From an uncultured virus (IMG/VR IMGVR_UViG_3300037297_000216) (Duplodnaviria > Heunggongvirae > Uroviricota > Caudoviricetes > Crassvirales), in the IMG/VR virus record IMGVR_UViG_3300037297_000216: 35,831 nucleotides of DNA. One strand, 5' to 3'. The first letter of the stretch is position 1. Each line of letters begins with the position of its first letter. The notes below the pieces were generated by a model. That model worked only from the letters and a program-made list of their open reading frames with translations, ran no database searches and was not told the DNA's origin. The position numbers and the translations under genes were made by a program. Shown in pieces: positions 4,722 through 35,167 of this stretch.

Positions 4722-4722
4722 A

Positions 4723-19420: not shown

Positions 19421-19430
19421 ATTACAAGAA

Positions 19431-21458
19431 TTAATCTTTAAAAGTAAAACCTAAATCAGAATTATATAAAAGACTTGGTATAAGAGAACTTAATAATGCA
19501 AGTTTTTCTTTATCTCTTTGAGTCATATTTTTCATTAACTTCCTTTGCTGAGCATATTGCTGTATTCCAGAAAGACCAGCACCCATCATTTTTCTCCTAG
19601 CAGCTTCATTCCTTAAATTAATGTCAGCTACATTATATCTTGTAGTAGCAATATCTTTACCTAAATACATATCAAATAAAGCCTGATCCCTTAAATATTG
19701 ATTTTCTACATTTTGTTTTTGAGCAATTGCTTCAGCATCAGCTCGTTGTCTTGCTGCTTGACCAGTCTGTAGATTAGCTAAGTACCTTGCTTTACTGGGA
19801 GCTGCTTGCCTCACACCATAATTATACGTAGATTGAGCTAATCTGTTTCGTTCTAATATAGGATTTATATTGAATTTTCTATTTTTCAATGTATTTCTTA
19901 TATCGCTTATATAAGGATTCTGAAAATCCCTAGCATTTAACCTTGTAGGACTTTTTAAACCTTGGCTGATATTATAAGCTATAGGAGCTAATGTAGCACC
20001 AGTATTAAATATATCTTCGTAAGGAATATTAGAAAAATCAAAACCTCTAGTTGGAGCAGTAGGAATAGTATTCAAATAATCAGTCAACCCTTGAGTCATT
20101 GGTAAAGATGGATTTCCTTGATTAATTTTTCCAGAAATGGGAGTTACAGGAGTTAACAAATTACTTGTATAATCTTTTCCATAAGTTTGAAACATTTTAT
20201 TTGTCTCTGGTCCATATATATTATCAGGAGATATCCCATAAAAAGACTGAAAGTCTCTCATATACTGAGGATTCTCGGTGAAAAAAGAAGCACCTTCAGT
20301 TTCTTCGTATCCTGGTAATATTTTCATCCCCCCTTGTCCTTTTTTCAAAGAAGGATATTTATGATATACTTTTGCTTTAACATCTGGTCTATGATGCAGT
20401 CCAGCTAAACGTAATGCATCAACTGCATCTGCCTTAGTAGGTATAGGATATGATCTTCCTCCACCAGCAAAATCACCTGATTTAACCATAGGATAAGCCT
20501 TAGTTTTACCTTTACCTTTAGGATATCTGTCTGTTGCACCAGATAATCCCCCACCTGCAAATACTTCCATACCTTCAGCTCCTTTCCTACTACGAGCCAT
20601 TTTACGAAAAGTTTTAGCTAAATTATACCTTTTAGACCCGGGAGGACAACTTGAACTACCAAATTTAGAACCAGTACATACTCCTTCAGTTCCCCTACGT
20701 TTTATACTGGCAGTAGCTTTTTGAATCCATTTACCTCCCTTAGCAAATTCTTCCATATTATTTTCTCCACCATTTTGTATTTGTTGATCTTCAAATAAAT
20801 CATCAAACTTACGTTGTATCTTATTTAACATTAAACCAGCAGTATTAGATGTTATACCTACTGGATTCTCTAACAAAGATTCCTCATATTTATTTTGAAG
20901 CTTTTTTAATTTAGAGCCTAATTGTTTATAAGTTTTATCTCCTCCTGGTCTTAATTTTCCTAATACATCAGTTCCACTAGGTAACTGAGTAATAACTCCT
21001 CCTTGTGCATGGGAAGGAGCACTGTCTGGTATTTTATAAAGTTTACCATCTGGAGTCCTATAAACTTCACCTTTTTCTAGTTCTACCACATCTGATGTCA
21101 TTCCACCATCCTGCATTATTGGGACATAAGGATTGTACGAAGACCTAGTCGGATCCATTGCCTCACGCTGCATTGCATGTTGTCTTTCTAACTCCTCATT
21201 GTATTTTTTTGCCTTACGCTTAGCGCCAAAAGCTCCAATAAAAGACAGAGGTCCTAACGCTATATTTTTTAAAAGCCCTTGACCAAAAGCTTTCTTTGGA
21301 TCCATAAAACCTTCATCGCTCAAATCATTTAAACCTACTAAATCCCCAATACTAGAGCCTAGTTGATTAATAAGATTAGCTCCAGAAGACATCAATGATA
21401 CAGGGTTTACATTTCCCCCAGACTGCATTCGCCTTATTCGTTTACTTTTACAAGCCAT
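19431..21458 (-). CDS. Cargo protein 1-like virion protein with repeated xxxGG motifs, 675 aa
   Basis: Directly follows the muzzle gene (TAATG overlap). Gly/Ala-rich hydrophobic N-terminal stretch, VELEKGEV...PSHAQGGV motif, recurring MQSGG/MQDGG/FAKGG/FAGGG/GQGG, and a Gln/Ala-rich helical C-terminus. Confidence 0.7.
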   Translation of the reverse strand: MACKSKRIRRMQSGGNVNPVSLMSSGANLINQLGSSIGDLVGLNDLSDEGFMDPKKAFGQGLLKNIALGPLSFIGAFGAKRKAKKYNEELERQHAMQREAMDPTRSSYNPYVPIMQDGGMTSDVVELEKGEVYRTPDGKLYKIPDSAPSHAQGGVITQLPSGTDVLGKLRPGGDKTYKQLGSKLKKLQNKYEESLLENPVGITSNTAGLMLNKIQRKFDDLFEDQQIQNGGENNMEEFAKGGKWIQKATASIKRRGTEGVCTGSKFGSSSCPPGSKRYNLAKTFRKMARSRKGAEGMEVFAGGGLSGATDRYPKGKGKTKAYPMVKSGDFAGGGRSYPIPTKADAVDALRLAGLHHRPDVKAKVYHKYPSLKKGQGGMKILPGYEETEGASFFTENPQYMRDFQSFYGISPDNIYGPETNKMFQTYGKDYTSNLLTPVTPISGKINQGNPSLPMTQGLTDYLNTIPTAPTRGFDFSNIPYEDIFNTGATLAPIAYNISQGLKSPTRLNARDFQNPYISDIRNTLKNRKFNINPILERNRLAQSTYNYGVRQAAPSKARYLANLQTGQAARQRADAEAIAQKQNVENQYLRDQALFDMYLGKDIATTRYNVADINLRNEAARRKMMGAGLSGIQQYAQQRKLMKNMTQRDKEKLALLSSLIPSLLYNSDLGFTFKD

Positions 21459-24400
21459 TATCTATTAGATATTCTATATTTAATATTCATATAAGGTATA
21501 GAAAATTCATACCCAGTAGAAGAATTATTTTCATATATAAAACTACAATATAAAAACGAACTCCTCATTCTTTCTCTAAAAGTTTGAGTAGTATCTAAAT
21601 TTGAAGAATCAAAAATATCAGGATCATTAGATACATCTTTATCAACTGCGTTTCTTGGAATACCAAATGTCCAATTTCTTTCTCGTCTTTTCAAAGCTAG
21701 TTCTTTAAGTACATTATTGTTCATACTGATATTACTTTTCATTTCCCATGTATCAGTATTTTGATAATCATTGTAAAAATTTGCATATGTAAACGTAGTA
21801 TCAAATAAGTTTTTCCTAACCCCGGTAGTATCGTTTATATAATTAACTTCTGAAAAATATTCAATATTGTCCCACACCTTAATAAATGGATAATTTTCAT
21901 TACATATGAAAGTAACCTTTGAATCAGAAACTCCATTGTTATAATAACTACAACGAGTATCTGAAACATTGTGTTTATACACTCCACTACTATTTTGTTC
22001 CTCAATTGAAAGAACATTTTTATCTAACGTAATAAACATAAAAGGTTGGTACGTAAAAAAAGGACAAAACACTCCATCTAATTCATTATATACTAAAGTA
22101 TTTTCCTTCGACCCATCATTAGTTATAGAGAATAAAACATCATCATAAGTATTATCAAAAGTACCTTCAACAGAATCTATTGAAGTTAACCCCTTTAAAT
22201 ATGAATCTACTCCTTTTAACTTAGAAATTTTATTTTCATTACCATTAAAAAAATAAACTTCTTTACGTTTCTCATCAATCCAATAAATTCCTCTTTTACT
22301 TTTTACAACTCCAAATCTACTAGAAGAACCAGAAGTATTAGAAATATAATCATACCTATCTAAAACACCTCCAGTACCTAATACTAATTGATTAGTATTA
22401 TTATCAGAAATCAAAGACCTTTCATTTACAGAGAGAACTCCAAAACCATTTGGTTGAAAGTAAAATACTTTATCCTTAAAATTAAATAAGTTAGTTAACT
22501 CTCCATAGTTACTATCAACATCTAAAAAATTATTTGCTCTAAATTTTGTCCAACTATCACTAATTTCATTATTGTATTTTTTATCTGAAACTAATACCCT
22601 TGTGTCAAATTTAGTTAAATCAAAATCTAAAGAAGTTTCAGAAATTCTTGACTCAACTTTAGGTTCAATTGAATAAACAGTATTATATAAATAATAATCA
22701 TTATCTTGAACAAATGTTCCAGAAGCAGTATCATGTTCCCCTGCTGTTTCTCTAACCCAAGTAGCATCAACTTTACCCTTTATTCTATGATAAGAATCTC
22801 CATGATCATATGCAAGATTAATTTGAGATTCCACTGGAAAATACATAACATGAATACGCCTATCCCCAGAAGATTCATTTATATGATAAGTACAGCGAAG
22901 ATGATCAAACATATTTATATAACAATCTCCTCCATACACTGTTATCTGAACCCCGTCATAAGATGAATCATATCTGTTTGAACAGGGATAATATTCATTA
23001 AAAAATCTATCTGTATAAGTTATTCCCCCATATCTTGAAGTATCTACATTTCTTTTTATACAAGCATAATATATAGAATGATCGTTAGTTAAATCAGCAG
23101 CATAATAAATATCTGGTCCAGTAACATTAGAAGTAAGATCTAAAATAGCAGCTGTTCCACAAGGACCTTTATCAGTTGAAAAAGGACTATCAGCTCCTTT
23201 ATCTGTACACATATGAACATAAGGAGTAAAAACTCCTATAGAATATTCTGTATCTTCTGTTGGCGGATTTGGTGAAAGAATTTTTAAATCATCAATATCA
23301 TAAACAGGCCTATTTGAAGTACCAGGTTTTACATAAGAATTATATTTTATGAAAGATTTATCTGTACTATAATAACTACAATAATCATCCATAACATATA
23401 AAACATATAACATATCCCCTTGTGTATATTGATATTGCCCATAATTTATTTCTGGGGACATAAAAGAAAATAAATCATTATCAGGATTATCTCCTCCATA
23501 ATATCCGGCAGCCCCAGATAATTTAGCTTCAATCGGAGAAACATACATACTTAACCCAGAATCATAATAAGTATGACTAAGAGCTCCACATGCTACCACA
23601 GATTTATCGACATTCGTCCTTTCAGCTCTAACTATTCTAAAATATTCTACATCACTAGGTAAATTACTGATAGTAAACTTTATATTTAATATATTTGCTA
23701 CAATATCTGTACCACTTCTATATATTCTACTACCAGAAGCATAATGCTCTAACCTAGGCATTCTAATATCCCCAATCCATTTGGCAGTAGCTTCTCTCCC
23801 TTTAGCATCTCCGCATACTACAGCAAAACGATATACCTCATCAGGCTGATAACCTACAATATCTTCATTAAAAGGGTTAGCATAAGTAGTATAAGAATTA
23901 ACTCCATCTTGAGACAACACTAAACTTTCTGCGCCAGAATCGCCAGCAGAATAAGTTCCTCCAGTTCTTATATCTCCTTTAGTTACAGAAGCATCAGATT
24001 CTATAGTTATAACATTTGAACCATAACCATACAAAAATTCATACTCTACATTCAATCCAGAACCCCCAACTGTACTAGCATCATTTTGATAATAATATCC
24101 TTCAACTGAAATATTATTAAAATAATTTATACAATCAGCATCCTCCGGAACAGTCCACCCAGTTCCATGAGTTCCTGTATATACAGAACCTGAAGTAAAG
24201 TACTCCCAATCTCCTAAAGTAGCTGGACCTCCTTGACCTGTTCTAGTAACCCCGGCAGCATATACATAATAATAACTTCCATCTGATTGGTATAACTTAG
24301 CTACACCGCTAGAATTAAACCTATAAGACCTAACATCGAAATCAACTTCAAAAGTATCTTCTTCTATATTACCAAATAATAAATAATCATTTTTAGTAGT

Positions 24401-25396
24401 AATTTCTTTAGCAGAAAATAAAATATTACTATAAGTTACAAAATCCTCTAAACTTATTTCACTTACCGTAACTCCATTATCAGTAATATATAAATAAGTA
24501 CCAGTAGTTACTTCGACTTCCTTAACAATAGAAATAGTAGGAATTCCATTATATTCCTCATAATGAATTCTTATTAGTCTAACATAATCATAAGAATCAT
24601 CATTTTCTATTCTTAGTCTAAACCCTTTTCCACTATACTCACCACTGTCTCCTCCTCTAAACTTTGAAGCATCAACAAAAGCATATGATGAAGTAGAAAC
24701 GCTTATCTTGTCTGATAAGGGAGAATACAAACTTTCATTACCGTTCAAATTAAAAAACTGATATGCATAATAAACAACGCCAGTAATAAGACTTCCACCA
24801 GTTATTTTATTTATTACAGGTTTTCTTAGATAGGCTTTATCTATAAAATCTAATTTATGTACAGATACATAGTCATTACTTCCACTATAAGGTAGTCCGT
24901 CAGTTGTATTATTCGTAGCAATATTTATTCTTCTACTTAATTCGCTACCATCACACCAATAAACATTAATTAAATCATCATTCTCATATCGACCAACTGC
25001 TTTTACTCTGTTACTTAAAGAAAACCCTAAAGTACTTCCATCTTCTGTATCATAATCAGCAAAAACAGTACTAACGGAAACTAATTCTTCATTATCATCT
25101 AATTCTACCTTATATATACTACTTACTGAAGAACCGTCATAAGTAAATACAACTAAATAATTCCTAACTAAACAATACCCAACAATATACTCAGTAACCG
25201 GTATTCCAGTTACAGGAAATTTAATATAAGTATTAGACATTCCCTTATTATTTTTGAGAATAGTCTTCTTACCTTCTTTATCAGCAACTAATCTAAAATT
25301 TTCAGCATGATAAAAAGAATTATTTGGAATGATACTTTTATCAAAGTCCTTGTTCATCCCACCGTTAAAAGTGTGTGTAACAACTTTAGTAGCCAA
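21458..25396 (-). CDS. Tail muzzle / tail stabilization protein (P22 gp10-like position), 1312 aa, TTG start
   Basis: N-terminal HTFNGGMNKD...FYHAENFRL. Internal YRFAVV...AKWIGDIRMP, FMSPEI, VYGGDCYINMF and DSWTKFRANNFLDVDSNYGELTNL...LGTGGVLDRYDYIS. C-terminal RRERNW...RMRS. These motifs, the beta-rich composition and the synteny fit crAss-like muzzle proteins. Confidence 0.85.
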   Translation of the reverse strand: MATKVVTHTFNGGMNKDFDKSIIPNNSFYHAENFRLVADKEGKKTILKNNKGMSNTYIKFPVTGIPVTEYIVGYCLVRNYLVVFTYDGSSVSSIYKVELDDNEELVSVSTVFADYDTEDGSTLGFSLSNRVKAVGRYENDDLINVYWCDGSELSRRINIATNNTTDGLPYSGSNDYVSVHKLDFIDKAYLRKPVINKITGGSLITGVVYYAYQFFNLNGNESLYSPLSDKISVSTSSYAFVDASKFRGGDSGEYSGKGFRLRIENDDSYDYVRLIRIHYEEYNGIPTISIVKEVEVTTGTYLYITDNGVTVSEISLEDFVTYSNILFSAKEITTKNDYLLFGNIEEDTFEVDFDVRSYRFNSSGVAKLYQSDGSYYYVYAAGVTRTGQGGPATLGDWEYFTSGSVYTGTHGTGWTVPEDADCINYFNNISVEGYYYQNDASTVGGSGLNVEYEFLYGYGSNVITIESDASVTKGDIRTGGTYSAGDSGAESLVLSQDGVNSYTTYANPFNEDIVGYQPDEVYRFAVVCGDAKGREATAKWIGDIRMPRLEHYASGSRIYRSGTDIVANILNIKFTISNLPSDVEYFRIVRAERTNVDKSVVACGALSHTYYDSGLSMYVSPIEAKLSGAAGYYGGDNPDNDLFSFMSPEINYGQYQYTQGDMLYVLYVMDDYCSYYSTDKSFIKYNSYVKPGTSNRPVYDIDDLKILSPNPPTEDTEYSIGVFTPYVHMCTDKGADSPFSTDKGPCGTAAILDLTSNVTGPDIYYAADLTNDHSIYYACIKRNVDTSRYGGITYTDRFFNEYYPCSNRYDSSYDGVQITVYGGDCYINMFDHLRCTYHINESSGDRRIHVMYFPVESQINLAYDHGDSYHRIKGKVDATWVRETAGEHDTASGTFVQDNDYYLYNTVYSIEPKVESRISETSLDFDLTKFDTRVLVSDKKYNNEISDSWTKFRANNFLDVDSNYGELTNLFNFKDKVFYFQPNGFGVLSVNERSLISDNNTNQLVLGTGGVLDRYDYISNTSGSSSRFGVVKSKRGIYWIDEKRKEVYFFNGNENKISKLKGVDSYLKGLTSIDSVEGTFDNTYDDVLFSITNDGSKENTLVYNELDGVFCPFFTYQPFMFITLDKNVLSIEEQNSSGVYKHNVSDTRCSYYNNGVSDSKVTFICNENYPFIKVWDNIEYFSEVNYINDTTGVRKNLFDTTFTYANFYNDYQNTDTWEMKSNISMNNNVLKELALKRRERNWTFGIPRNAVDKDVSNDPDIFDSSNLDTTQTFRERMRSSFLYCSFIYENNSSTGYEFSIPYMNIKYRISNR

Positions 25397-26327
25397 CTGT
25401 TAAAATATTTACTCTATTTCTATAAAAAGTATCATTATAAATTTTCTGTTCTTGACCAGAAGTTGAAAAAAATGTAGAATGATCAGTTAATTCAGGCACT
25501 AACTCTAACCACTTATTTTTAATACTTTCTAACTGATCTGCATTAGGCATAATAACATTTGCATAAGCTTGTTTGCAATAAAAATTCCACTTATGTTCAG
25601 CATGATAATATACTCTATCCGTTATTCTTCCTGAAACCCATTCTGGATACAAAAGTTTAACTCTTATATACCAATATACAGCCTCTATATAACCCGGGTC
25701 ATCGGGTATTAAAGGATATCCGTCTGAATCAGTAGGTATAGCTTGATATGCTATCATTAAATACCCGTTACGAACATTTAACTTTATATAATTACTATTA
25801 AGAGTATAAGTATAATCAAATGAAAAATCTGTTGTATTGTCTGTAATTCTAAAACTATCTATATTCAACAAAGAGGTTAATTTTTCTTTGGTAATAGAAT
25901 CTGTATTTATCAACTCTAAAGCATCTTCGTAACTTAAATTATATAAATCCATAGCTAATTGAATAAGAGTACTCTCACTAGCTACAAACCCAGAAGATGA
26001 AGAATCAGTAACAGGTTGACGAGTTGCAAAAGAATTATAATTATATCTAAGAGGAAGAAAATTACCAGTAGGAGAAGTAGAATATGCAATGCCTAATATT
26101 CTATAAACATCGTCTGGAAGCTCTGCCTGATAATTGCTTACAGTTAGTAAAGGTTCGCCTTCTTTCCCTGCAACTTTTATATTATATTGACCAAACCCTC
26201 CAATCTTTTCTACAGCTTCTCCAATCCACTCTACTATATCAGAAATACGAACGGTTTCTTCTTGAATATTTGAATCCGTTAATACCTTTGATATTATCCG
26301 TTTAGAAGAAATTTGTTTATAAATCAT
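25386..26327 (-). CDS. Tail ring / tail tubular protein
   Basis: Start moved from TTG 26333 to ATG 26327 (MIYKQISSKRIISKV). EWIGEA and IAYQAIPTDSDGYPLIPDD...EAVYWYI...WNFYCKQA motifs. Immediately upstream of the muzzle gene as in crAss-like tails. Confidence 0.8.
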   Translation of the reverse strand: MIYKQISSKRIISKVLTDSNIQEETVRISDIVEWIGEAVEKIGGFGQYNIKVAGKEGEPLLTVSNYQAELPDDVYRILGIAYSTSPTGNFLPLRYNYNSFATRQPVTDSSSSGFVASESTLIQLAMDLYNLSYEDALELINTDSITKEKLTSLLNIDSFRITDNTTDFSFDYTYTLNSNYIKLNVRNGYLMIAYQAIPTDSDGYPLIPDDPGYIEAVYWYIRVKLLYPEWVSGRITDRVYYHAEHKWNFYCKQAYANVIMPNADQLESIKNKWLELVPELTDHSTFFSTSGQEQKIYNDTFYRNRVNILTVGY

Positions 26328-26799
26328 ACTCAAAATAATCTTTTAATCTATTTTTAATATATTTAGCTAAAGTACGCTTTACAGTTCTAGTAGGAATAAA
26401 TCTATACTTGGATATATTCTTAGTCATTGCATTTCTTTTATTCCAGTAAAATAAATATTTATATCCATCACTGTGCTCATTTAAATGTGTAACTTTTTTA
26501 CCACATTCTAAAGTAGTATGCCAATCTGTACTATAAAATCTTTTAACTTGATTTTCAGGTTTTATTTTCTTTTTAATTATTTGAAAAGTTCCTAATCCAC
26601 TTATTAACTTAAATTTATCAGAATCTTCTAAAATAACATTAATAATTTTTTTAAAATAAGAAGTAGTCAATCTAACATATGTAGAATATGATATATAATA
26701 AGGACTATCTTTCTCTAAATTTTTTATATAATCCTTATACATATGCCTAACAGTATAAGGACTTTTTATCTTATTTGATCCTCTACTAAAAAAAGCCAC
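26317..26799 (-). CDS. IHF/HU-like basic DNA-binding protein of the crAss-like tail module, 160 aa, GTG start
   Basis: Very Lys/Arg-rich. FKLISGLGTFQIIKKK resembles the HU/IHF 'l.gfG.F.v' strand, followed by DW..T, HLNEHSDGY and YRFIPTR. Located between two ring genes. Confidence 0.7.
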   Translation of the reverse strand: MAFFSRGSNKIKSPYTVRHMYKDYIKNLEKDSPYYISYSTYVRLTTSYFKKIINVILEDSDKFKLISGLGTFQIIKKKIKPENQVKRFYSTDWHTTLECGKKVTHLNEHSDGYKYLFYWNKRNAMTKNISKYRFIPTRTVKRTLAKYIKNRLKDYFEYDL

Positions 26800-27504
26800 T
26801 TACTTAGAAATATTAGGTTCAAACTTACTATTAGAATCTCCTTTATTATCACTAGGAGAAACAGCCTCTATCCCCAACTCTTTAGTTAGAATTAACTCTT
26901 TAAGAACTGGGATTTTATCCATAGGAATAGGATATTTATCATCATAAGAAGCTACTCTTTGATTAGTTAAAGGATTTGTAAGTTCATAAACTTCAACAGG
27001 ATTCTCAAATATTCCCCTAACTAAAATATATTGCAAACCTTTATTATTATTATAAAGATATATATATCTATCTTTCAAATAAGCTATCACATCGTTAGAA
27101 GTATATTTTTTATATTTTTGATGATTAGTTCTACTAACTCCATTTGAAAGCTGTATTTCATTACCTGATAAATCCCCGACATGGGTTATACCTGATTTAA
27201 AATTTAAATCTATCGTATTAGGAACATTTAAAGAAGTTCTATAAATATATTTTCCAGTTGAAATAGTAGTATCACTGCCAGCCAAATCCTCTTTTACTAA
27301 TTTAAAAGGAATATTTTGAATATAGTCTGTATCAACAAATTTATTTTTATCTAAATCCCTTTTTAAAAGAAAAGCTCTATATTGATGTATCCAAGCTTCA
27401 ATTTGTCTTTTTGATATAGGTTCACTAGAATTCAACTTTGATCCTCTAACAATATTTAAAAGATCATTAACTATACTATTAAGACTAACAAATTCTATAC
27501 TCAT
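26800..27504 (-). CDS. Tail ring (structural) protein, 234 aa
   Basis: SLNSIVNDLLNIVRG...ISKRQIEAWIHQYRAFLLK, VRGIFENP, YPIP and C-terminal PSDNKGDS motifs, plus position in the crAss-like tail block. Confidence 0.75.
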   Translation of the reverse strand: MSIEFVSLNSIVNDLLNIVRGSKLNSSEPISKRQIEAWIHQYRAFLLKRDLDKNKFVDTDYIQNIPFKLVKEDLAGSDTTISTGKYIYRTSLNVPNTIDLNFKSGITHVGDLSGNEIQLSNGVSRTNHQKYKKYTSNDVIAYLKDRYIYLYNNNKGLQYILVRGIFENPVEVYELTNPLTNQRVASYDDKYPIPMDKIPVLKELILTKELGIEAVSPSDNKGDSNSKFEPNISK

Positions 27505-27505
27505 T

Positions 27506-29266
27506 TTATTTAGTATTATGAACTTTTATTTCGGAGCCTCCTTTGAATTTTCTATCAAAAATTATAATTCGATTTCCCTCTTTATACTTTCTATCGTACA
27601 ATAAAATTTCTTTAGGTCCAAAAGTAACAAGTTGATATTCATAAGGACCAATATCACCAGCAATTCCACTAGGGATAGTTTTATGATCTAAATCTAATAC
27701 CCATGTTACTGATGTTGCCGAATCAACCTGGTACGAAGTAGATAAAGGTCGATATCTAATAGTATCTATAAATGTAGGTATATTACAAAATGAATTAGCA
27801 TCATACCCGTTCATTTGCCAGTCTTCAAGTGTTAAATCACTTGAAGTTCCTTCTCGCCAATATCCTATGCTATCAAAAAAATTATAATCGGATGTTAAAA
27901 CAACGTTTTGATGTATATAATAATAATAATTGCAATTATTGAATAAATTATTTTTTGATACTATAGTGTTGTTATCATCAGCATATGAATCTATAGCTCT
28001 GATTACATCTGTGAAAATATTATTCCAAATATTCACGTTATGATATCTCGTGTAAATTGCCCTGTCAAATCCTTCAACTATATTGTTATAAATATAAAAA
28101 CCATTTCCCGGTTTTATCCCGTTACAATCAGTTCCACATCCGTCAGGAGCTTCAATAAAATTTCTTCTAATCGTGTCTCCTTCAGCAATGGTTCCAAATC
28201 CAAATTCATTTGTAGAACTTGCAACCAACCAGTTATCTTCAAGTATACCCCAAGGTCCTCCATTACCTTCCCCGCAAGTTCCTCCAGGTTCAGGATCGTA
28301 ATCATGACTACACGAAATAACCCCTTTCCCCGTTAAACTTCCATATGTACTCATATAATTATGGTGAACATGATAATAATCCGCAACGCAATTTAATTGC
28401 ATGACACATCCTGTTCCTGCGGGAGCCCATCCACAATGCATGCATTTATTATATGCAAATTCAAGATGTTTTGATCTCCCGTAAAATCCCTCAGATCCAA
28501 CAGAGTCGAGAATGCAATTTAATATTTTTAAATATTCTGGAGTTTCTGCATTTACATTTGTCGTAAAAATCATGTGTAAATCAACCGTGGATGTTGAAAT
28601 TCCATGAATATACAGATTCCTTAATATTGAATAATCCGATATTGTCACCCGAATTGCATTACTAGAATTACCTGTTATTTCAAGATTTTCAAGTATAACC
28701 GTGTCTTCATTATTAATATCAAAAGCATACGTGTTGCTTCCCGCGTCAATATAAGGCAATGCCCCATTACCTCTGGCTCCTATAAACACATCATTCACGT
28801 TAAAATCAATTTGTGGATGGCTACTATATGTAGAATCCCTGTAATAAAAATAATAATAATGTGATGTAAAATTGTTATCATTATAACTCGCCGGGGTTTG
28901 ATTAACAATAGAATCGGAATGAGCTACATAAATATACACGCTTGCATCATCTGTCATCGTACTGTCAGTAATCCTATATGTGTACTTAAAAGTTTTTGAT
29001 TGTTGCAATTTTGCTGCATCCGAAAGTTCTATTTTACCCCCGCTTGTTATCGTGAACGCGTTAGCCGTATCTTGTACTTCGCTATATACAATACTGCAAA
29101 CATTACAAAGGGTATCCCTATTATAATTTATTGCCACTGCACCAATATCATCTCCATTTATAGCATCGAAGGGCATGACAAAATTATAATCATGTGCCAT
29201 ATCTACATTTTGCCCAAAACAAAATAAAGGTATAAACAATAATATAAAAAATAATAACCTCTTCAT
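27506..29266 (-). CDS. Secreted right-handed beta-helix (pectin-lyase-like) protein with cadherin-like N-domain and choice-of-anchor-Q-like C-terminal motif, 586 aa
   Basis: Signal peptide MKRLLFFILLFIPLFCFG|Q. AFTITSGGKIEL...YRITDS is cadherin-like. Repeated 'ILENLEI/ILRNLYI/IYNNIV/IWNNIF/KNNLF' rungs. DLD....P.....DIGPYEY motif. Many Cys. Confidence 0.7.
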   Translation of the reverse strand: MKRLLFFILLFIPLFCFGQNVDMAHDYNFVMPFDAINGDDIGAVAINYNRDTLCNVCSIVYSEVQDTANAFTITSGGKIELSDAAKLQQSKTFKYTYRITDSTMTDDASVYIYVAHSDSIVNQTPASYNDNNFTSHYYYFYYRDSTYSSHPQIDFNVNDVFIGARGNGALPYIDAGSNTYAFDINNEDTVILENLEITGNSSNAIRVTISDYSILRNLYIHGISTSTVDLHMIFTTNVNAETPEYLKILNCILDSVGSEGFYGRSKHLEFAYNKCMHCGWAPAGTGCVMQLNCVADYYHVHHNYMSTYGSLTGKGVISCSHDYDPEPGGTCGEGNGGPWGILEDNWLVASSTNEFGFGTIAEGDTIRRNFIEAPDGCGTDCNGIKPGNGFYIYNNIVEGFDRAIYTRYHNVNIWNNIFTDVIRAIDSYADDNNTIVSKNNLFNNCNYYYYIHQNVVLTSDYNFFDSIGYWREGTSSDLTLEDWQMNGYDANSFCNIPTFIDTIRYRPLSTSYQVDSATSVTWVLDLDHKTIPSGIAGDIGPYEYQLVTFGPKEILLYDRKYKEGNRIIIFDRKFKGGSEIKVHNTK

Positions 29267-30456
29267 TACCTGATTTCTTTCGCAATAATATAAGCAATTA
29301 AACCTGAAATAAGAATAATAACATATAACCCTAAAACTTTTATCTTTTTATATAATTCATTTAATTTATTCTCATGTTCTTCAATATATCTATAAGCATG
29401 TTCTACTCCCCAAAACAATTTTTGATTTACTTCCCAAAGATTTCCCTTTGTATTATGTTCTATTATAGTATCACCTTTTTCATTTATGTATTTCCAACCT
29501 AATTCTCCATTAACGGTATCCCTTAAAAACTCTACAATATCTATTAAACCATCCTTTAAACCAAACCCAGATGCTGCAGAAGTAGAATCAGCATATAAAA
29601 CTCCGCTGACAGAATCTATTAATATAACAGCCGGTTGACTAGGAATACCTGATAGAATACCTTTATAATAAATACTATCATTACATCTTAAAACTTTTCT
29701 AGTTGTAACTGAGTCTTTACTGTATGTAATAACCTCTTCACTGGAACACCAAACTGCAAGTTTATTAGAACTTATCCTTCCCCAACCAGCCTGTTCAGTA
29801 TAAACAGGTCTATACGTCATACCAGTTATACTATTATACAATGCAAATGAATAAGTAGGTCCAGCTCCAGTTATACCAATTATTACATCATCATCAAAAT
29901 CATAACGTTTACCCGTTGAAAAACATGCTCTATACCTGTTCTGACCAAAAGTAAAAAAACTATACTTTGTACTTCCTGACTTATACCCTATAGTATCATT
30001 ATCATTAGTAAACCATAAATTTTTACTAAATACAATATCTTGTCCAAAATCATCTATAGTAGCACTTCCTACATTATACAGTCCAGAACTCAAAGAAGTA
30101 AATGTATGTTCTTCTGTAGTATCGACAGCACTTTTTTTAATCGTATCTGCTGTTGGAATATAACTTGAAGTAACTCCTCCTAATATAATCTCATTCATAT
30201 TAATAGAATTAAAAGAATGAGTTTCTGCAGAATCTACTCCATATTTTTTGGATAATTTAACAATAGAATCATTGGTATGAATATAGTCCAGATATTCTTC
30301 CCCCGACACTTTAGCAGAATCACCAAGATCAGTATAACCTTCAACAGTTAAATTTCCTTTAAGCGTAACATTATTAAGTGTTTTAGTCTGAGAAAATATA
30401 TTTAACGACATCAAAGAAAAAACAACAATTAATAATATTTTAAAACTTTTTTTCAT
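29266..30456 (-). CDS. Secreted fibre-like protein with C-terminal chaperone-like coiled coil and C-terminal transmembrane anchor, 396 aa
   Basis: Signal peptide MKKSFKILLIVVFSLMSLNIFS|Q. Beta-rich fibre-like body. GNLWEVNQKLFWGVEHAYRYIEEHENKLNELYKKIK coiled coil, then hydrophobic VLGLYVIILISGLIAYIIA followed by KEIR. Confidence 0.6.
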   Translation of the reverse strand: MKKSFKILLIVVFSLMSLNIFSQTKTLNNVTLKGNLTVEGYTDLGDSAKVSGEEYLDYIHTNDSIVKLSKKYGVDSAETHSFNSINMNEIILGGVTSSYIPTADTIKKSAVDTTEEHTFTSLSSGLYNVGSATIDDFGQDIVFSKNLWFTNDNDTIGYKSGSTKYSFFTFGQNRYRACFSTGKRYDFDDDVIIGITGAGPTYSFALYNSITGMTYRPVYTEQAGWGRISSNKLAVWCSSEEVITYSKDSVTTRKVLRCNDSIYYKGILSGIPSQPAVILIDSVSGVLYADSTSAASGFGLKDGLIDIVEFLRDTVNGELGWKYINEKGDTIIEHNTKGNLWEVNQKLFWGVEHAYRYIEEHENKLNELYKKIKVLGLYVIILISGLIAYIIAKEIR

Positions 30457-30466
30457 ATTATATTTA

Positions 30467-30871
30467 TTAAATAATTTCAGCTCTATAAACTATTGTACAA
30501 TCTATCGGAACGGTAATAGTAAATCCATCTTCACTCTCACTATTTATTTGATAATCCACATTATTACCAGAACCATCATAACATCTTATAAGTAACATAT
30601 AATCTGTAGTATTTAATGTTGAAGAATATGAAATAGTATTTGGACTACCAGCCGCAGTAATTGACTCTTTTCCCTTACGAGAATCAGTATACCCAGTAAT
30701 ACCTGATACTCCAAATTTTAAAACTAAAGTATCATCAATATAAAACTTAAAATAATCATTTTCAAACCTAATTTCTCCCTCATCATTACCAGTCCTAAAT
30801 GTAAAACCTACAGAAGGAATAGTTACATTTCTAATAATATTTGGAATGTATCTATCAGAATATATACTCAT
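30467..30871 (-). CDS. Small beta-rich tail-fibre/lectin-like protein, 134 aa, no signal peptide
   Basis: EGEIRFEND..KFY fibre-type motif. C-terminal 'TISYSSTLNTTDYMLLI...SEDGFTIT....IVYRA' resembles small beta-sandwich fibre-tip domains. Confidence 0.45.
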   Translation of the reverse strand: MSIYSDRYIPNIIRNVTIPSVGFTFRTGNDEGEIRFENDYFKFYIDDTLVLKFGVSGITGYTDSRKGKESITAAGSPNTISYSSTLNTTDYMLLIRCYDGSGNNVDYQINSESEDGFTITVPIDCTIVYRAEII

Positions 30872-30874
30872 ACT

Positions 30875-31084
30875 TTATTTCTTAAAAATTAAATCATCAA
30901 TCTTTTTCTGTCTATCAGAAGCTTTTACTTTTTTTATATTAACAATAATAGCAGAAATACCAACTCCCACAGAAACGCAAAGAGCTATAAAACCCAGTAT
31001 AGGGGTAGCTTTTTCAATAAAATTATAAACAATAGATCCTAAAGGTAATGCAATTCCACTAAAATTCAATAACTTGTCTTTCAT
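30875..31084 (-). CDS. Small membrane protein (holin-like), 69 aa
   Basis: One clear TM segment (ILGFIALCVSVGVGISAIIV), an amphipathic N-terminal segment and a basic C-terminal tail. Function is inferred only. Confidence 0.45.
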   Translation of the reverse strand: MKDKLLNFSGIALPLGSIVYNFIEKATPILGFIALCVSVGVGISAIIVNIKKVKASDRQKKIDDLIFKK

Positions 31085-31108
31085 ACTTATATATATATAT
31101 GTTTAGGA

Positions 31109-31888
31109 TTAATACTCTGTTATTGGTGTACAAGTTGATATATCTTCGTCAACATTATCAACTTCACAAATTTCATAAGTACTATAATAAATCCTAAAAT
31201 CTTCTAATGTTGCTATCGTAAAATAATTATTATCTAATAGTTTTATTTCATTCCAGTTTGGATATTCACCATTTTTACGTTTCAAATGAACACTAATTTG
31301 ATTATTAGATTTGCGCTTGCAAATAAAATTCATGCTATTGCATATCTGTCTAATCGTATACCCTCCTACAACTTCATCCATATTAGCATAAGCCACAACG
31401 CCGTATAAGTCCCAGTTCCATATTTTTCCTCCCAAACTGTCTAATTTCCAAATATTGTTCATAGAGTACAACGTGTCTTTATCTTCGTCTAAATTAAACA
31501 TCCATATATTGTTATTTTTCAAATAAACATTCCATTCTTTATTTATAATTTGATTTTCTAGCTTTTGTTTAAAATCTGGATATTTTATCGCTGAATCTTT
31601 ATTAACTTTTATTACAGGCAGTTGTAAAGTATCAAATATGTATTTTTTCAAATATTTTTCCGTTGGACGATTTAATTTTATTTTGTACTTTGACAATGTG
31701 TTTGTATTGTTATACCATATATAATGCAATGCTTCCTGACGTGGATAACCATTAACATAATCAATACTGTCTATTTGTGATAAAACAATTGTATTATCAA
31801 AGTACAGAGTATCTATATTAATAATTTCTAATTGTGAATAACTTTTAATTCCAATTAATAATAATAATATTGCACTTAATTTTTTCAT
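31109..31888 (-). CDS. Secreted protein of unknown function, 259 aa
   Basis: Signal peptide MKKLSAILLLLIGIKSYS|Q. TAATG-coupled to the upstream LamG gene. No recognisable domain. Confidence 0.6.
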   Translation of the reverse strand: MKKLSAILLLLIGIKSYSQLEIINIDTLYFDNTIVLSQIDSIDYVNGYPRQEALHYIWYNNTNTLSKYKIKLNRPTEKYLKKYIFDTLQLPVIKVNKDSAIKYPDFKQKLENQIINKEWNVYLKNNNIWMFNLDEDKDTLYSMNNIWKLDSLGGKIWNWDLYGVVAYANMDEVVGGYTIRQICNSMNFICKRKSNNQISVHLKRKNGEYPNWNEIKLLDNNYFTIATLEDFRIYYSTYEICEVDNVDEDISTCTPITEY

Positions 31889-32940
31889 TATGGATTATAG
31901 TGTTTTGAAGATTGATATAAATTTGTTATTTCATTCGATGATAACGCACGATTATAAATTCTAATTTCATCAATATAGCCGTTTAAATTTACTGTACCAT
32001 TATTATTCCTTCCAATAAATGTAGTGCTTGGAATATAGATTGAATTTTCTCCAGTTGCGCTATATATAGAATTTAAATTTTGATAAACAATCCAATTGTC
32101 AATACCAGGCTCATTTGTTATTGTCAATAAATGCCAATTTGATTTATTAACACTTCCTGTTCCAATTGTAGGCCGATCATTTCTAAATATATCCATATAT
32201 ATAGTTCCAGATGTGTAAGGATAATGGGTGGATGGAGATGTTCCAAGATAACATAATCCACTTTTTGCAATGGTTGTTGGAACATTATTTTTTAATTTGA
32301 CATATAATGAAAATGTAGCCTTACCACTAAAATAACTTGTTAAATTAGGCAAAATTATATAATCATTAATACCGTCATAATACCAACAACTTGAATCAGT
32401 TTCAATCCATATCCCCATTGGTTGGTAAGCTCCAGTTGTTTGAGTTCCATTGTCACCATAAATAGACTGATCGACAATTAATCCGTCACAACCCACGAAA
32501 AATTCATCTCCTATATTTGCCGTACATATTTGATCTAATTTTATTGAATCAATACTACCAAGAGTATCAAGTATTGTATAAATTGTTCCCGATTCAGGAT
32601 CACCAAAACGTATTGAATTTCCTATAACTACATGATCCGTACTATCAACAACAACGGTATCATTACTTGCCCATACAATTGTATCTCCCGTTGAATTGTA
32701 AGTTAATCCAGATTTTGTAACATTTTTTGAATCAAACCACAAAACTAATGAAGTATCTCCTCCTGAAATATAATTCCCGTCATTAATAATAATATCTCCT
32801 TTTTTATCTATATAAACAATATTATCATTTGTATTATATATATTATCAATTTCCCAAGTACTTCTATTTATTTTAGGCAACCATTGAGAAAATACACTAA
32901 AGCTTATAAACCACAACAAAATAAATATTCCCCACTTCAT
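31888..32940 (-). CDS. Secreted LamG/concanavalin-A-like lectin-domain protein, 350 aa
   Basis: Signal peptide MKWGIFILLWFISFSVFS|Q. LVLWFD...DQSIYGDNGT...YDGINDYIILP...TFSLYVK...WHLLTIT...FIG...LNGYIDEIRIYNRALSSNEITNLY is the LamG-like (Laminin_G_3) signature. Confidence 0.85.
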   Translation of the reverse strand: MKWGIFILLWFISFSVFSQWLPKINRSTWEIDNIYNTNDNIVYIDKKGDIIINDGNYISGGDTSLVLWFDSKNVTKSGLTYNSTGDTIVWASNDTVVVDSTDHVVIGNSIRFGDPESGTIYTILDTLGSIDSIKLDQICTANIGDEFFVGCDGLIVDQSIYGDNGTQTTGAYQPMGIWIETDSSCWYYDGINDYIILPNLTSYFSGKATFSLYVKLKNNVPTTIAKSGLCYLGTSPSTHYPYTSGTIYMDIFRNDRPTIGTGSVNKSNWHLLTITNEPGIDNWIVYQNLNSIYSATGENSIYIPSTTFIGRNNNGTVNLNGYIDEIRIYNRALSSNEITNLYQSSKHYNP

Positions 32941-32944
32941 CTTA

Positions 32945-33427
32945 TTATTCTAATTCTTGTGGATACATTTTATCTAAATTACTTCCGTCATAAATTAACG
33001 TATCAGACTCAAAAGAAATTAAAATAGTATCTCCATTATATGTAAAATAAATCTTACGTTCAATTAAATTATCACTACCATCATAACTAAAATCGACTAA
33101 ATATCTCTTAGCTTTCATTTTAAGTAAAGTAGCGTGTAAATCTGAAACATCATCAAAAGTAGAATCTCCATTAGTAGACCATAAGACATAATCTATCGAA
33201 AAAGGTTTAACATTTGACGTTCTCGGTACAACCCTAACCTCGGTAGAACTAACTGTTTCAATTGCTGAAATTTCAGATTTATCTAGAACAGTTATATGAT
33301 AAGCATCTGCAGCCCTAAATTGAATCATATCCCCTAAATCAGTAATAGTATAATTTTGTGACATACTAGAAGCACAAAATAAAACTAAAGTACTTACTGC
33401 TATAATTAATTTTTTTATAATATTCAT
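32945..33427 (-). CDS. Secreted protein of unknown function, 160 aa
   Basis: Start moved to ATG at 33427, which removes the overlap with the upstream gene and gives the signal peptide MNIIKKLIIAVSTLVLFCASSMS|Q. C-terminal YDGSDNL/YDGSNL repeats. Confidence 0.6.
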   Translation of the reverse strand: MNIIKKLIIAVSTLVLFCASSMSQNYTITDLGDMIQFRAADAYHITVLDKSEISAIETVSSTEVRVVPRTSNVKPFSIDYVLWSTNGDSTFDDVSDLHATLLKMKAKRYLVDFSYDGSDNLIERKIYFTYNGDTILISFESDTLIYDGSNLDKMYPQELE

Positions 33428-33432
33428 AATTT

Positions 33433-33711
33433 TTAACTTAAATCTAACCAATAATTTCCTTCAGTTATATCATTTATCTTTTGCATAATATCTTCTGCTT
33501 CTGCTATAGTAAAAAAATTATCATCACCTGTAATAGTATCCCTAAGATAATAATCCATTATTTCTACATAAGCTTTAAGAAGAATTAATTTTATTTTCTC
33601 AACATTTCGTTTTACATTTAAATTAACATTCTCACGTAAAGCTAAATTATATGTATAATCACTAAAAGCAGAATTTATATCTAATAAATATTGTTGTTCT
33701 GTTGCTGTCAT
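33433..33711 (-). CDS. Small helical tail protein (possible tail hub B-like), 92 aa
   Basis: Compact helical ORF ending FTIAEAEDIMQKINDI. Position downstream of a hub-A-like gene and upstream of ring genes. Confidence 0.4.
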   Translation of the reverse strand: MTATEQQYLLDINSAFSDYTYNLALRENVNLNVKRNVEKIKLILLKAYVEIMDYYLRDTITGDDNFFTIAEAEDIMQKINDITEGNYWLDLS

Positions 33712-33715
33712 AATA

Positions 33716-35167
33716 TTAAGGATAACTTATATAATTCATTCTAACTATCATACTATGTACTATCCAAACTCCAGTAAGACCGGTTACTTGAACTCTAAGA
33801 CTCGGGCCTCCTCCAACTGAAAATGTTACAACTGGAACAGAACCATGTACAGATGTAAAAGAATCAACAACTTCTCTAGGAGTAGTATGAGTACTTCCAA
33901 CTAAGGAAATATTTGTTTTATCTCCAATAGTTCCTCCATAATATATAGCTCTATACAATGCTGATGGAGTATAAGTTATATCATGAGACATTGCAAGATA
34001 TTCTATTTCAAACGAAGTACAAGAATGTCCATTTAAATACAACGGATCTGTCCCTAATATATACATGTCAGAAATAGTATTGTTATCAGTTTTTCTACAC
34101 ATATGAAACTCTCTGCCTTGAATAGTTGTATCTTGAGTACCTCCTGGAAATCCTCCCCCAAATTCCACAGTATTCCCAGAAAATACTCTTTCAGTTTTAT
34201 AAAAAGCATTCGAAAAATAACCATGTGCAAAAGCATAATGAGCATTACGAACATCACTTCCACAATATCCTTTATTTATAGCAAACCCATCATTTGAATA
34301 ATAAACTTTTCCATCATTAAATGCAGTAGAACCTCCAGTTAACCCCGCATCATTCATATTAATTGATCCATCATTAGCAGTAAAATTACGTTTCACTAAA
34401 TCAACATCATTTCCATATCCAATTATTGTTCCTCCAAAAGATATCGAATAAGGAGACCACATTACAAAAGTATCTGGTGGATAAATAGCTTCAAACCCAT
34501 ATGCACTAGAAGTACCTGCTTTTAAAATACCACTTGCTAAATTATAACTTCCATTAAGAATTATAGTTGAGTTATCAACATTACTAGCAGCCCCGTCTTC
34601 AGTCATTAATTCCCAAGAATCCCCGTCCCATATATATGACCTGCCTAATGTTGAATTCCTGTAAGCATCATTTGTATCAGGACTAACCGGAGCTGTAGAA
34701 AAAGTACCTAACCAATTAATACTAATTCCATTATCTCCAGTTGCACCAGTGTCGCCAGTTGCACCAGTGTCGCCAGTATCTCCCTTAGCTCCTTCTTTAC
34801 CTTTAAAAACTGATATCTTCCTGTATACAGTATTTTCCCCAAATTTCGTCGCTTTGGCTACAAAATTTCCAGTATCAGCAGTAATAGCTGTTACAGAAAT
34901 AGTATTACTAACTACATTTACAGTTACATTAGAAGTACTTTCAGCTGTTATCGTCCATTCGGAAGTAACATCTGTTCCTTTATAATTAACTAAAAAAGTA
35001 ACATTTGCTTCAGTATAAACTGGATTATTTCCATCTCCATCAGTAGGAATAACTAAGCAATCTCTATTTGATATTAAAAGATATGAACTTAGTTCACTAG
35101 CTACACTAGGATTAAAAAATGTAGAAACATCATTACTAGGACTACTAATTACTACGGTTGACGCCAT
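33716..35167 (-). CDS. Tail fibre protein with Ig-like N-domain and short collagen-like segment, 483 aa
   Basis: IPTDGDGN...VTSEWTIT...ISVTAITADTG Ig-like tail module. (GXY)8 run. INWLG...YIWDGDSW fibre motif, VDNSTI motif and Gly/Ala-rich fibre repeats. No signal peptide. Confidence 0.75.
   Translation of the reverse strand: MASTVVISSPSNDVSTFFNPSVASELSSYLLISNRDCLVIPTDGDGNNPVYTEANVTFLVNYKGTDVTSEWTITAESTSNVTVNVVSNTISVTAITADTGNFVAKATKFGENTVYRKISVFKGKEGAKGDTGDTGATGDTGATGDNGISINWLGTFSTAPVSPDTNDAYRNSTLGRSYIWDGDSWELMTEDGAASNVDNSTIILNGSYNLASGILKAGTSSAYGFEAIYPPDTFVMWSPYSISFGGTIIGYGNDVDLVKRNFTANDGSINMNDAGLTGGSTAFNDGKVYYSNDGFAINKGYCGSDVRNAHYAFAHGYFSNAFYKTERVFSGNTVEFGGGFPGGTQDTTIQGREFHMCRKTDNNTISDMYILGTDPLYLNGHSCTSFEIEYLAMSHDITYTPSALYRAIYYGGTIGDKTNISLVGSTHTTPREVVDSFTSVHGSVPVVTFSVGGGPSLRVQVTGLTGVWIVHSMIVRMNYISYP
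34737..34777. repeat. Perfect 18-bp tandem repeat (2.3 copies) encoding GDTGAT collagen units
   Basis: + strand ccagttgcaccagtgtcg x2 followed by ccagt. Confidence 0.9.

Follow-up and report, generated by a model that had tools for sequence, protein, structure and literature searches.

The window analysed here, a stretch of 35,831 nucleotides (nt) from the uncultured virus record IMGVR_UViG_3300037297_000216, represents 35.8 kb of a genome of ~98 kb (97,831 bases), and its DNA is present in four wetland metagenome runs. Its G+C content is ~29% and every long open reading frame (ORF) lies on the minus strand. Genes for ring protein 2 (R2), an IHF-like protein, ring protein 1 (R1) and the muzzle protein, recognised with Pfam and PHROGs, follow each other in the order of the Crassvirales tail module, and by its sequence the window is a crAss-like phage. 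Crassvirales are described as an order infecting Bacteroidetes (PMC10136315). The nearest named phages, as judged by the ring proteins, are Suoliviridae such as cr10_1, with ~40% identity at best. Between a small leaderless gene of 92 amino acids (aa) and the gene for R2 lie seven minus-strand genes. Five of them, here called SP1 to SP5, code for proteins with cleavable-type leaders, and in all five the residue following the predicted cleavage site (position +1) is glutamine (Gln). This group of genes, the cassette, and the route that its products would take through the host envelope are the subject of this report.

All five leaders have a basic n-region, an uncharged h-region of 11-16 residues and a net charge of +1 to +3. 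The predicted cuts, marked by a slash, follow small residues at positions -3 and -1: FCFG/Q in SP1, NIFS/Q in SP2, KSYS/Q in SP3, SVFS/Q in SP4 and SSMS/Q in SP5. In each protein the Gln of the site is also the first Gln of the whole sequence. In composition-matched random stretches a Gln site arises with a probability of 0.024-0.031 for each protein, so all five would have one by chance at ~1e-8 to 3e-8. Leaders were called by a home-made heuristic scanner and by eye. The same scanner found a cleavable leader in none of the 13 other proteins of the window, two of them encoded inside the cassette and 11 outside it; a 69-aa membrane protein of the cassette was flagged once at a looser setting.

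It could be argued that such leaders are never cleaved, being either fortuitous hydrophobic stretches at the N-termini of proteins from an AT-rich genome or anchors that keep fibre parts at the inner membrane while assembly proceeds. At a G+C content of ~29%, codons for Ile, Leu, Phe and Lys are favoured, and the calls come from a heuristic scanner, not from a trained predictor. We nevertheless regard this explanation as very improbable. ORFs on the non-coding strand of the same DNA yielded three weak leader-like starts and a Gln site in none of them, the hydrophobic cores of 11-16 residues are too short for a stable anchor, and five Gln sites would have to have arisen by chance. Conservation of the cleavage sites and the composition of the mature parts, described below, argue against it as well.

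No lipobox is present, as the leaders of SP2, SP3 and SP4 lack Cys and the leader Cys of SP1 and SP5 is preceded by Phe. A search with NCBIfam at E<=1 did not find the C-terminal sorting domain of the type IX secretion system (T9SS; Por_Secre_tail type) in the seven cassette proteins, and NCBIfam gave no lysin or spanin match among them either. None of the cassette genes matched a defence family in PADLOC, and the five leader proteins have no match in PHROGs save a marginal one for SP5. The cassette is compactly built: TAATG overlaps at the SP4-SP3 and SP2-SP1 junctions and the start codon of R2, 1 nt past the SP1 stop, can be read directly in the sequence, all spacers within the cassette measure 1-24 nt, and there is no terminator-like site on the coding strand. 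From this spacing we infer co-transcription with the tail genes. The initial annotation of this DNA had claimed that five of the seven genes combine a leader with Gln at +1, that the flanking structural genes have no such leader and that the genes form a tight operon; all three claims are borne out by these data. Coordinates of the cassette and its surroundings are given in the table.

Features of the window and of the sister locus L008. Cleavage sites are marked by a slash; the last column gives D-S/T-(A/I/L/V/M/T) sequons, observed and expected.
Feature	Coordinates	Strand	Description	Sequons
Window, 483-aa protein	33716-35167	-	leaderless collagen-repeat tail fibre; PHROGs tail-fibre families, best E 4.2e-6	1 vs 2.6
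Window, 92-aa protein	33433-33711	-	leaderless; upstream border of the cassette; 32% identical to a 93-aa protein of L008	
Window, SP5	32945-33427	-	160 aa; leader MNIIKKLIIAVSTLVLFCASSMS/QNYT; two YD-like repeats at the C-terminus (by eye)	3 vs 1.25
Window, SP4	31888-32940	-	350 aa; leader ...SFSVFS/QWLP; C-terminal LamG/concanavalin-like lectin domain	5 vs 1.8
Window, SP3	31109-31888	-	259 aa; leader ...IGIKSYS/QLEI; alpha/beta protein	6 vs 0.67 (z 6.6)
Window, 69-aa protein	30875-31084	-	two hydrophobic segments; highly charged Lys/Asp-rich C-terminal tail	
Window, 134-aa protein	30467-30871	-	leaderless, fibre-like; both ends match a 279-aa protein of L008	1 vs 0.7
Window, SP2	29266-30456	-	396 aa; leader ...SLNIFS/QTKT; C-terminal helix and transmembrane anchor (VLGLYVIILISGLIAYIIAKEIR)	12 vs 1.66 (z 8.6)
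Window, SP1	27506-29266	-	586 aa; leader MKRLLFFILLFIPLFCFG/QNVD; 14 Cys; glycanase/lyase-type, beta-helix-like	11 vs 2.3 (z 6.1)
Window, ring protein 2	26800-27504	-	Pfam CrAss_Ring_2, E 7.7e-48; downstream border of the cassette	
Window, IHF-like gene			between the ring protein 2 and ring protein 1 genes; PHROG 12177	
Window, ring protein 1	25386-26333	-	Pfam CrAss_Ring_1, E 7.2e-84	
Window, muzzle protein	21458-25396	-	Pfam crAss_MUZ, E 9e-202	
Window, two proteins	17363-21458	-	675 and 685 aa; downstream of the muzzle gene	
Window, giant protein	4723-17340	-	4205 aa	
Window, giant protein	3-4748	-	more than 1582 aa	
L008, 182-aa protein			GLFA/Q; Phage_depo_C domain	
L008, 856-aa protein	7088-9658		TGFS/Q; GH5 cellulase (E 8.5e-26) and CBM6	
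L008, ring protein 2			between the 856-aa and 159-aa genes	
L008, 159-aa protein			IITA/QNYT; 44% identical to SP5	
L008, 363-aa protein			ICFG/QFLP; counterpart of SP4	
L008, 549-aa protein			SGFS/A; Pel9A-like beta-helix	

In every family for which homologues were found (SP1, SP2, SP3 and SP5), Gln stays at +1 although the sequence of the h-regions changes. SP1 has a sole homologue, P0002 (76% identity), in which the leader is retained with the site FCFS/Q, so that Gln stands at +1 in 2/2. Homologues of SP2, P0003 (98%) and P0004 (68%), share with it an identical NIFS/Q and an identical C-terminal transmembrane anchor (3/3). SP3 has 11 homologues of 44-90% identity; Gln19 is invariant in 12/12 although the leader cores vary. 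A profile search with SP5 in 1.84 billion representatives gave 13 matches, and nine of these are small proteins. In the SP5 family, counted together with the window and L008, a leader followed by Gln is found in 9/11 members, the other two having cut N-termini, and the stretch QNYTITD right after the cut is the best conserved part of the family. Small residues at -3 and -1 together with Gln at +1 thus persist down to 27-45% identity, which would be hard to understand if the leaders were chance hydrophobic stretches or uncleaved anchors. Residues 70-102 of the SP5 profile also match 6-15 times within proteins of 1034-2614 aa (P0021, P0025, P0026 and P0027), and this stretch may represent a repeat unit that SP5 has in common with very large surface-type proteins.

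Outside these families relatives are scarce. The cassette DNA has no match in 50,697 phage records, in which tblastn with SP1 and SP2 likewise found nothing and SP4 gave only two matches, both to its LamG domain and both in archaeal virus records. Scans of metagenome contigs with SP1 and with an SP1 alignment confirmed nothing, an SP3 alignment found nothing in viral and genome contigs, and SP5 alignment scans recovered the L008 contig alone. As for the host of the phage, neither the SP3 nor the SP5 alignment has a match in bacterial genomes.

The second line of evidence comes from glycosylation sequons. The O-glycosylation motif of Bacteroidota is given as (D)(S/T)(A/I/L/V/M/T) (PMC8550257). 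Compared with shuffles of each protein, which provide the expected counts, the five leader proteins together carry 37 sequons vs 7.7 expected, a 4-5 fold excess, whereas the 13 leaderless proteins of the window have 31 vs 31.6 and no z above 1.1. The same division is seen in L008, with 33 vs 11.1 in five leader proteins and 21 vs 20.0 in 12 others. All 14 database homologues of cassette proteins are enriched too (z 3.1-8.6; SP3 homologues z 3.1-8.4). Leaderless beta-helix virion proteins are plain in this respect (gp22 of crAss001, 1 vs 3.4; g086 of phi14:2, 3 vs 7.2), whereas signal-anchor lysis regulatory proteins of the same two phages are enriched: gp27 of crAss001 (L088 14094-14696) has 4 vs 0.4 (z 5.9) and g076 of phi14:2 (L086 18231-18809) has 4 vs 0.6 (z 4.5). 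The periplasmic domains of gp27 and g076 may therefore be themselves glycosylated by the host. Because plain beta-helix proteins and enriched signal-anchor proteins stand side by side, an artefact of fold or composition is disfavoured. Selection for sequons makes sense only in proteins that face the periplasm and would be pointless in cytoplasmic domains, so that the enrichment of the mature parts supports real export and speaks once more against uncleaved leaders. Conserved Gln at +1 and sequon enrichment together support the initial view of the five proteins as substrates of Sec and signal peptidase I that follow the Q-rule, and we consider their export and periplasmic maturation highly probable.

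A survey of the interval upstream of R2 for recurring genes with leader and Gln, as had been suggested at the outset, was run on 80 IMG/VR loci around R2 relatives and on cr10_1, that is on 81 loci. They contain 1,299 ORFs of at least 80 aa on the ring-protein strand, 59 of them with leader-like starts. The bulk of the 59 is one recurring signal-anchor protein of ~200 aa, encoded beside lysis genes. Gln sites are present in 7/59: four belong to L008 and one to L007, and the remaining two, from L015 and L016, are identical to each other and doubtful. A further cassette of this kind thus occurs in L008 alone. In cultured phi14:2 and crAss001, cleavable leaders are found in 0/26 structural-region proteins each, in agreement with the earlier statement that tailed-phage fibres are normally leaderless.

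L008 comes from a 63-kb contig and has 51% ring-protein identity to the window, and both the membership of the block and its layout around R2 differ. Common to the two loci are the small membrane protein of the cassette (69 aa in the window, 82 aa in L008, 36% identity, same relative position) and the leaderless fibre (134 and 279 aa), the L008 protein being a counterpart with an inserted fibre-repeat middle. The 69-aa gene is paired with the leaderless 134-aa gene in the middle of the cassette, and the same pairing is seen in L008. The 134-aa protein is probably a cytoplasmic part of the virion fibre, judging from its lack of a leader, its similarity to this counterpart and its ordinary sequon count. 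SP4 and the 363-aa protein of L008 share 46% identity over residues 5-50 only, which comprise the leader and ~30 mature residues; the remainder has diverged. Homologues of SP2 and SP3 are missing from L008. The 856-aa protein of L008 contains 14 sequons vs 4.3 expected, and its gene stands directly upstream of those for a small membrane protein and R2. L003, cr10_1 and crAss001, which are more typical relatives, have lysis genes and leaderless fibres in the corresponding interval. The 92-aa gene is kept beside the variable interval in relatives, and a similar 96-aa gene was noticed by eye in L003. Between large fibre genes of cr10_1 (L001 4738-5778) there is a reverse transcriptase, retron-type or like those of diversity-generating retroelements; as far as gene content tells, cr10_1 generates diversity in its fibre region in a different way.

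As to the folds of the cassette proteins, the initial annotation had named beta-helix, LamG lectin and fibre. The lectin stands: residues 189-338 of SP4 match Pfam Laminin_G_3 with E 4.5e-14 and pass the cut-off. The right-handed beta-helix of SP1 is a weak match to Pfam Beta_helix (E 1.3e-4, 22.1 bits), under the cut-off of 25.9. The fibre assignment of SP2 is tentative. Its ESM Atlas features lie nearest to Peptidase_S74 fibre clusters at 0.83, which we treat as a lead only; Peptidase_S74 gave no Pfam match at E<=10, an SP2 profile found chance-level matches only among PDB sequences, and the AlphaFold2 (AF2) model, with a mean predicted local distance difference test score (pLDDT) of 30, is unusable. 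A spacing S296...K301, of interest for the Ser-Lys dyad of Peptidase_S74, was noticed in SP2 by eye. From its leader and C-terminal anchor, SP2 is predicted to be a type I membrane protein that is mostly periplasmic. The AF2 model of SP3 consists of tandem alpha/beta units (pLDDT 75, predicted template modelling score 0.71) and has no convincing structural neighbour: the best Foldseek match in PDB has E 0.049, VIA-align found generic ferredoxin-like domains with Z 4.5 at best, and the ESM Atlas gave no result. Taken with the leader proteins of L008, the recognisable domains seem to be of glycan-binding and glycan-cutting kind: the window has beta-helix and LamG, and L008 has GH5 with CBM6, the Pel9A-like helix and a C-terminal domain of depolymerase type. 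Cysteine parity was considered as a disulfide signal and dropped, since the counts in mature parts are partly odd. The 14 Cys of SP1 (2.4%) and the 16 of the muzzle protein may be compared with a single Cys in each of the two giant proteins (0.02% and 0.06%). The 675-aa and 685-aa proteins are rich in Gln (5.0-5.5% vs ~2-3% elsewhere) and have no family match.

Position and gene content also raise the possibility of a role in lysis. The 69-aa protein is holin-like by its architecture and has no match in Pfam, PHROGs or NCBIfam. It could be the holin of the phage, with one exported protein as a Sec-delivered cell-wall enzyme restrained until the holin fires and SP2 as a periplasm-spanning disruptor of the outer membrane that replaces the spanin-like protein. 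The interval just upstream of R2 does carry lysis genes in relatives: cr10_1 and L003 hold holin-like, L,D-transpeptidase-like and 200-212-aa signal-anchor proteins there (L003 7732-9430, L001 8709-12904), and crAss001 has gp27-gp30. The window and L008 are without the signal-anchor gene that recurs in most related loci, neither an endolysin nor a spanin-like signal-anchor protein of ~200 aa was recognised in positions 1-35831 with the three family collections named above, and SP3, the most widely conserved member of the cassette, is encoded directly upstream of the holin-like gene. We nevertheless find a lysis role for the cassette unlikely. None of the five proteins matched a family or fold of peptidoglycan hydrolases, and the idea of SP3 as a Cys-peptidase-type lysin was dropped for lack of an invariant His among its homologues. 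A unimolecular spanin is defined by a lipobox Cys at +1 together with a C-terminal transmembrane segment; SP2 possesses the latter but has Gln at +1, and at 396 aa it is far larger than such a spanin. L008 manages without homologues of SP2 and SP3. Moreover, with 35.8 of ~98 kb in view, the lysis genes may sit elsewhere in the genome.

Traces of the cassette are present in two metatranscriptome libraries, whose contigs cover it in part. They contain pieces of 151-362 nt from SP1, SP2 and SP4, nearly all at least 99% identical to the window, as well as pieces of R1, R2, the IHF-like gene and the 483-aa fibre. A strain variant in run X2 shows 40 listed differences in SP1, SP2 and SP4, of which 22 are synonymous and 18 non-synonymous, a ratio that fits purifying selection. 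Half of them (20/40; 13 synonymous and 7 not) fall within 217 bases of SP1 (27965-28181, codons 362-434), and this cluster has the look of a tract acquired by recombination from a diverged relative. The RNA-library pieces and the strain differences count as weak hints in favour of the scheme proposed next.

We propose that the five proteins are made late in infection and that the Bacteroidota host would handle them as its own secretory proteins. Sec would transport them over the inner membrane, signal peptidase I would cleave ahead of the invariant Gln, the host glutaminyl cyclase would convert this Gln to pyroglutamate, and the general O-glycosylation system of the host would modify the D-S/T-(A/I/L/V/M/T) sites. 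Because they have neither a T9SS tail nor a lipobox, SP1, SP3, SP4 and SP5 would remain soluble in the periplasm until lysis, while SP2 would stay attached to the inner membrane through its anchor at the C-terminus. The cassette could thus be host-recognition and depolymerase gear hardened outside the cytoplasm. Once the holin opens the inner membrane, at least some of the proteins would dock on finished particles, at their apparatus of leaderless fibre and hub, and the undocked remainder would be released as free enzymes. Every stage of this sequence, from export, cleavage, cyclisation and glycosylation to periplasmic retention and docking, is something that we infer from protein and gene sequences. 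As a whole, exported host-recognition and depolymerase gear of which some docks on particles at lysis is the explanation that we tentatively favour, at slightly below even probability.

Several features speak for docking. The cassette lies between the conserved 92-aa gene and R2, which is the position of fibre genes in crassviruses. A conserved N-terminus with a swapped C-terminus is the usual layout of swappable receptor-binding proteins, and SP4, whose N-terminus is conserved and whose C-terminus is swapped, therefore counts in favour of docking. Since the conserved parts of SP4 and SP5 are their mature N-termini, these two would be the first candidates. A precedent for attachment by a short N-terminal segment is fibre gp22 of crAss001: its residues 1-26 are reported to mediate docking into the hub that sits on R1/R2 (PMC10172136). 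The virion label of the leader proteins with Gln in Cellulophaga phage phi18:3, described below, points the same way.

The proteins may also be exported and never reach a particle. They would then act as free periplasmic or released proteins on glycans of the envelope or matrix, in aid of progeny escape, of less re-adsorption to debris or of host polysaccharide use as auxiliary carbohydrate-active enzymes, with SP2 as a membrane-tethered envelope factor. All evidence for export applies to this case equally, and it is free of the topological difficulty of combining parts located in the periplasm with particles located in the cytoplasm. Secreted carbohydrate-active domains (LamG, and in L008 GH5 with CBM6 and the Pel9A-like helix) and the membrane anchor of SP2, kept in 3/3, would be at home there, and leaderless fibres would remain for the virion. 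The arrangement of the genes fits it less well, as they stand inside a fibre, hub and ring block with minimal spacers and overlapping codons, unlike a separately regulated moron. Further, the constant N-terminus and swapped C-terminus of SP4 are typical of virion-attached receptor binders, and proteins that have neither T9SS tail nor lipobox could not reach surface glycans before lysis. Superinfection exclusion, like receptor masking, fits poorly with expression from a late operon. Leader proteins with Gln at +1 are also annotated as virion proteins in the Cellulophaga phage phi18:3. We see free action as a distinct possibility, clearly on the lower side of even.

The favoured explanation, export followed by docking, has a number of points against it. 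The leaderless fibres of 483 and 134 aa could be the whole receptor-binding set; the former, with its collagen repeats and unremarkable sequon count, indicates that the phage also owns ordinary cytoplasmic fibres. SP2 is membrane-anchored, and S74-type self-cleavage that could free it is unsupported; SP3 has an alpha/beta fold with no likeness to fibres; the GH5 and CBM6 protein of L008 resembles an ordinary secreted glycanase. The leaders of SP1 and SP5 do hold a Cys (C16 and C19), albeit one preceded by Phe. The phi18:3 proteins show no similarity to those of the cassette, although none was looked for, and lack sequon enrichment, and the RNA-library pieces may be DNA carry-over. That at least one of the five proteins ends up on the virion is, in our estimate, almost but not quite an even matter. 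A broader version, in which a crassvirus branch and other Bacteroidota phages build part of their host-recognition apparatus outside the cytoplasm, as exported, pyroglutamate-capped and O-glycan-coated modules that snap onto tails through their mature N-termini after the holin breach, is possible, at clearly less than even odds.

Whichever fate applies, the cassette would place crassvirus proteins of receptor-binding and glycan-cutting type on the secretory and glycosylation pathways of the host. The accepted view is that tailed phages assemble their particles entirely in the cytoplasm. If the proteins do join the virion, the periplasm would be a second assembly compartment, and host glycans on phage fibres would affect stability, immune recognition and host range; two-compartment assembly and a host-glycosylated virion would both be new, neither having been described for tailed phages. 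If they act as free proteins, crassviruses would bring a secreted set of glycan-directed tools into action at lysis. In either case, leaders with Gln at +1 combined with D-S/T-x enrichment could indicate, from sequence alone, that an uncultured phage has a Bacteroidota host, and could also mark those phage proteins that face the periplasm.

Among known systems, the fibres of crAss001 (gp22-gp26) and phi14:2 come from phages that share with the window the taxonomic order and the R1/R2/muzzle tail, and are likewise of beta-helix, lectin and hydrolase type (PMC10172136). They differ in being leaderless and free of sequon enrichment, as expected from ordinary cytoplasmic parts. Phage envelope proteins that depend on Sec, such as signal-anchor and spanin-type lysis proteins, resemble the cassette in reaching the periplasm through the host machinery, and the crassvirus signal-anchor proteins gp27 and g076 resemble it in sequon enrichment as well. 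Signal-peptide endolysins and periplasmic superinfection-exclusion proteins are further examples of Sec-dependent phage envelope proteins. Unlike the cassette proteins, these are small, single proteins with a role in lysis or exclusion and have no lectin, beta-helix or glycanase domains.

In Cellulophaga phage phi18:3 (NC_021794), a cultured member of Pachyviridae, gp085, gp086 and gp087 are consecutive, large and late proteins with leader and Gln at +1; they begin with ...FGYS/Q, ...GVSA/Q and ...GLNA/Q. Their label as virion structural or tail proteins comes from the note 'based on experimental MS/MS' (tandem mass spectrometry) in the record, and from this note alone. By analogy, they are the only hint that proteins with leader and Gln reach particles. 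They are unlike the cassette in belonging to a different phage family, in having 1 sequon vs 3.0-3.7 expected and in lacking Pfam domains.

Host substrates show the same leader anatomy, the same Gln at +1 and the same sequon (PMC10653852, PMC8550257), and the Q-rule with its stabilising role has been described for Bacteroidota (PMC10653852). Cassette proteins differ from such substrates of glutaminyl cyclase and O-glycosylation in being virus-encoded and in having no homologues in the bacterial genome collection. A parallel in phages is found in prophages of Porphyromonas gingivalis, in which five Q-rule genes have been reported, coding for signal peptides with predicted cleavage that exposes Gln, and have been viewed as adapted to the way in which Bacteroidota secrete proteins (Matrishin et al. 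2023, PMC10367356). Phage-encoded signal peptides exposing Gln are thus common to those prophages and the window; the prophages are temperate and of siphovirus type, and their genes, of unknown function, are discussed there as modifiers of the host surface (PMC10367356). The window differs from them as a virulent-type crassvirus with five genes in one tail-module block, lectin- and glycanase-type domains and strong sequon enrichment. No report of exported fibre- or lectin-type crassvirus proteins or of sequon-rich phage proteins was found in a literature search that left subscription journals largely outside. Phage proteins using host Sec are already known, and so are Q-rule genes in Porphyromonas prophages (PMC10367356). 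What appears to be new is a block of glycan-directed, receptor-binding-type proteins within a crassvirus tail module that seem fitted to the secretory, Q-rule and O-glycosylation pathways at once.

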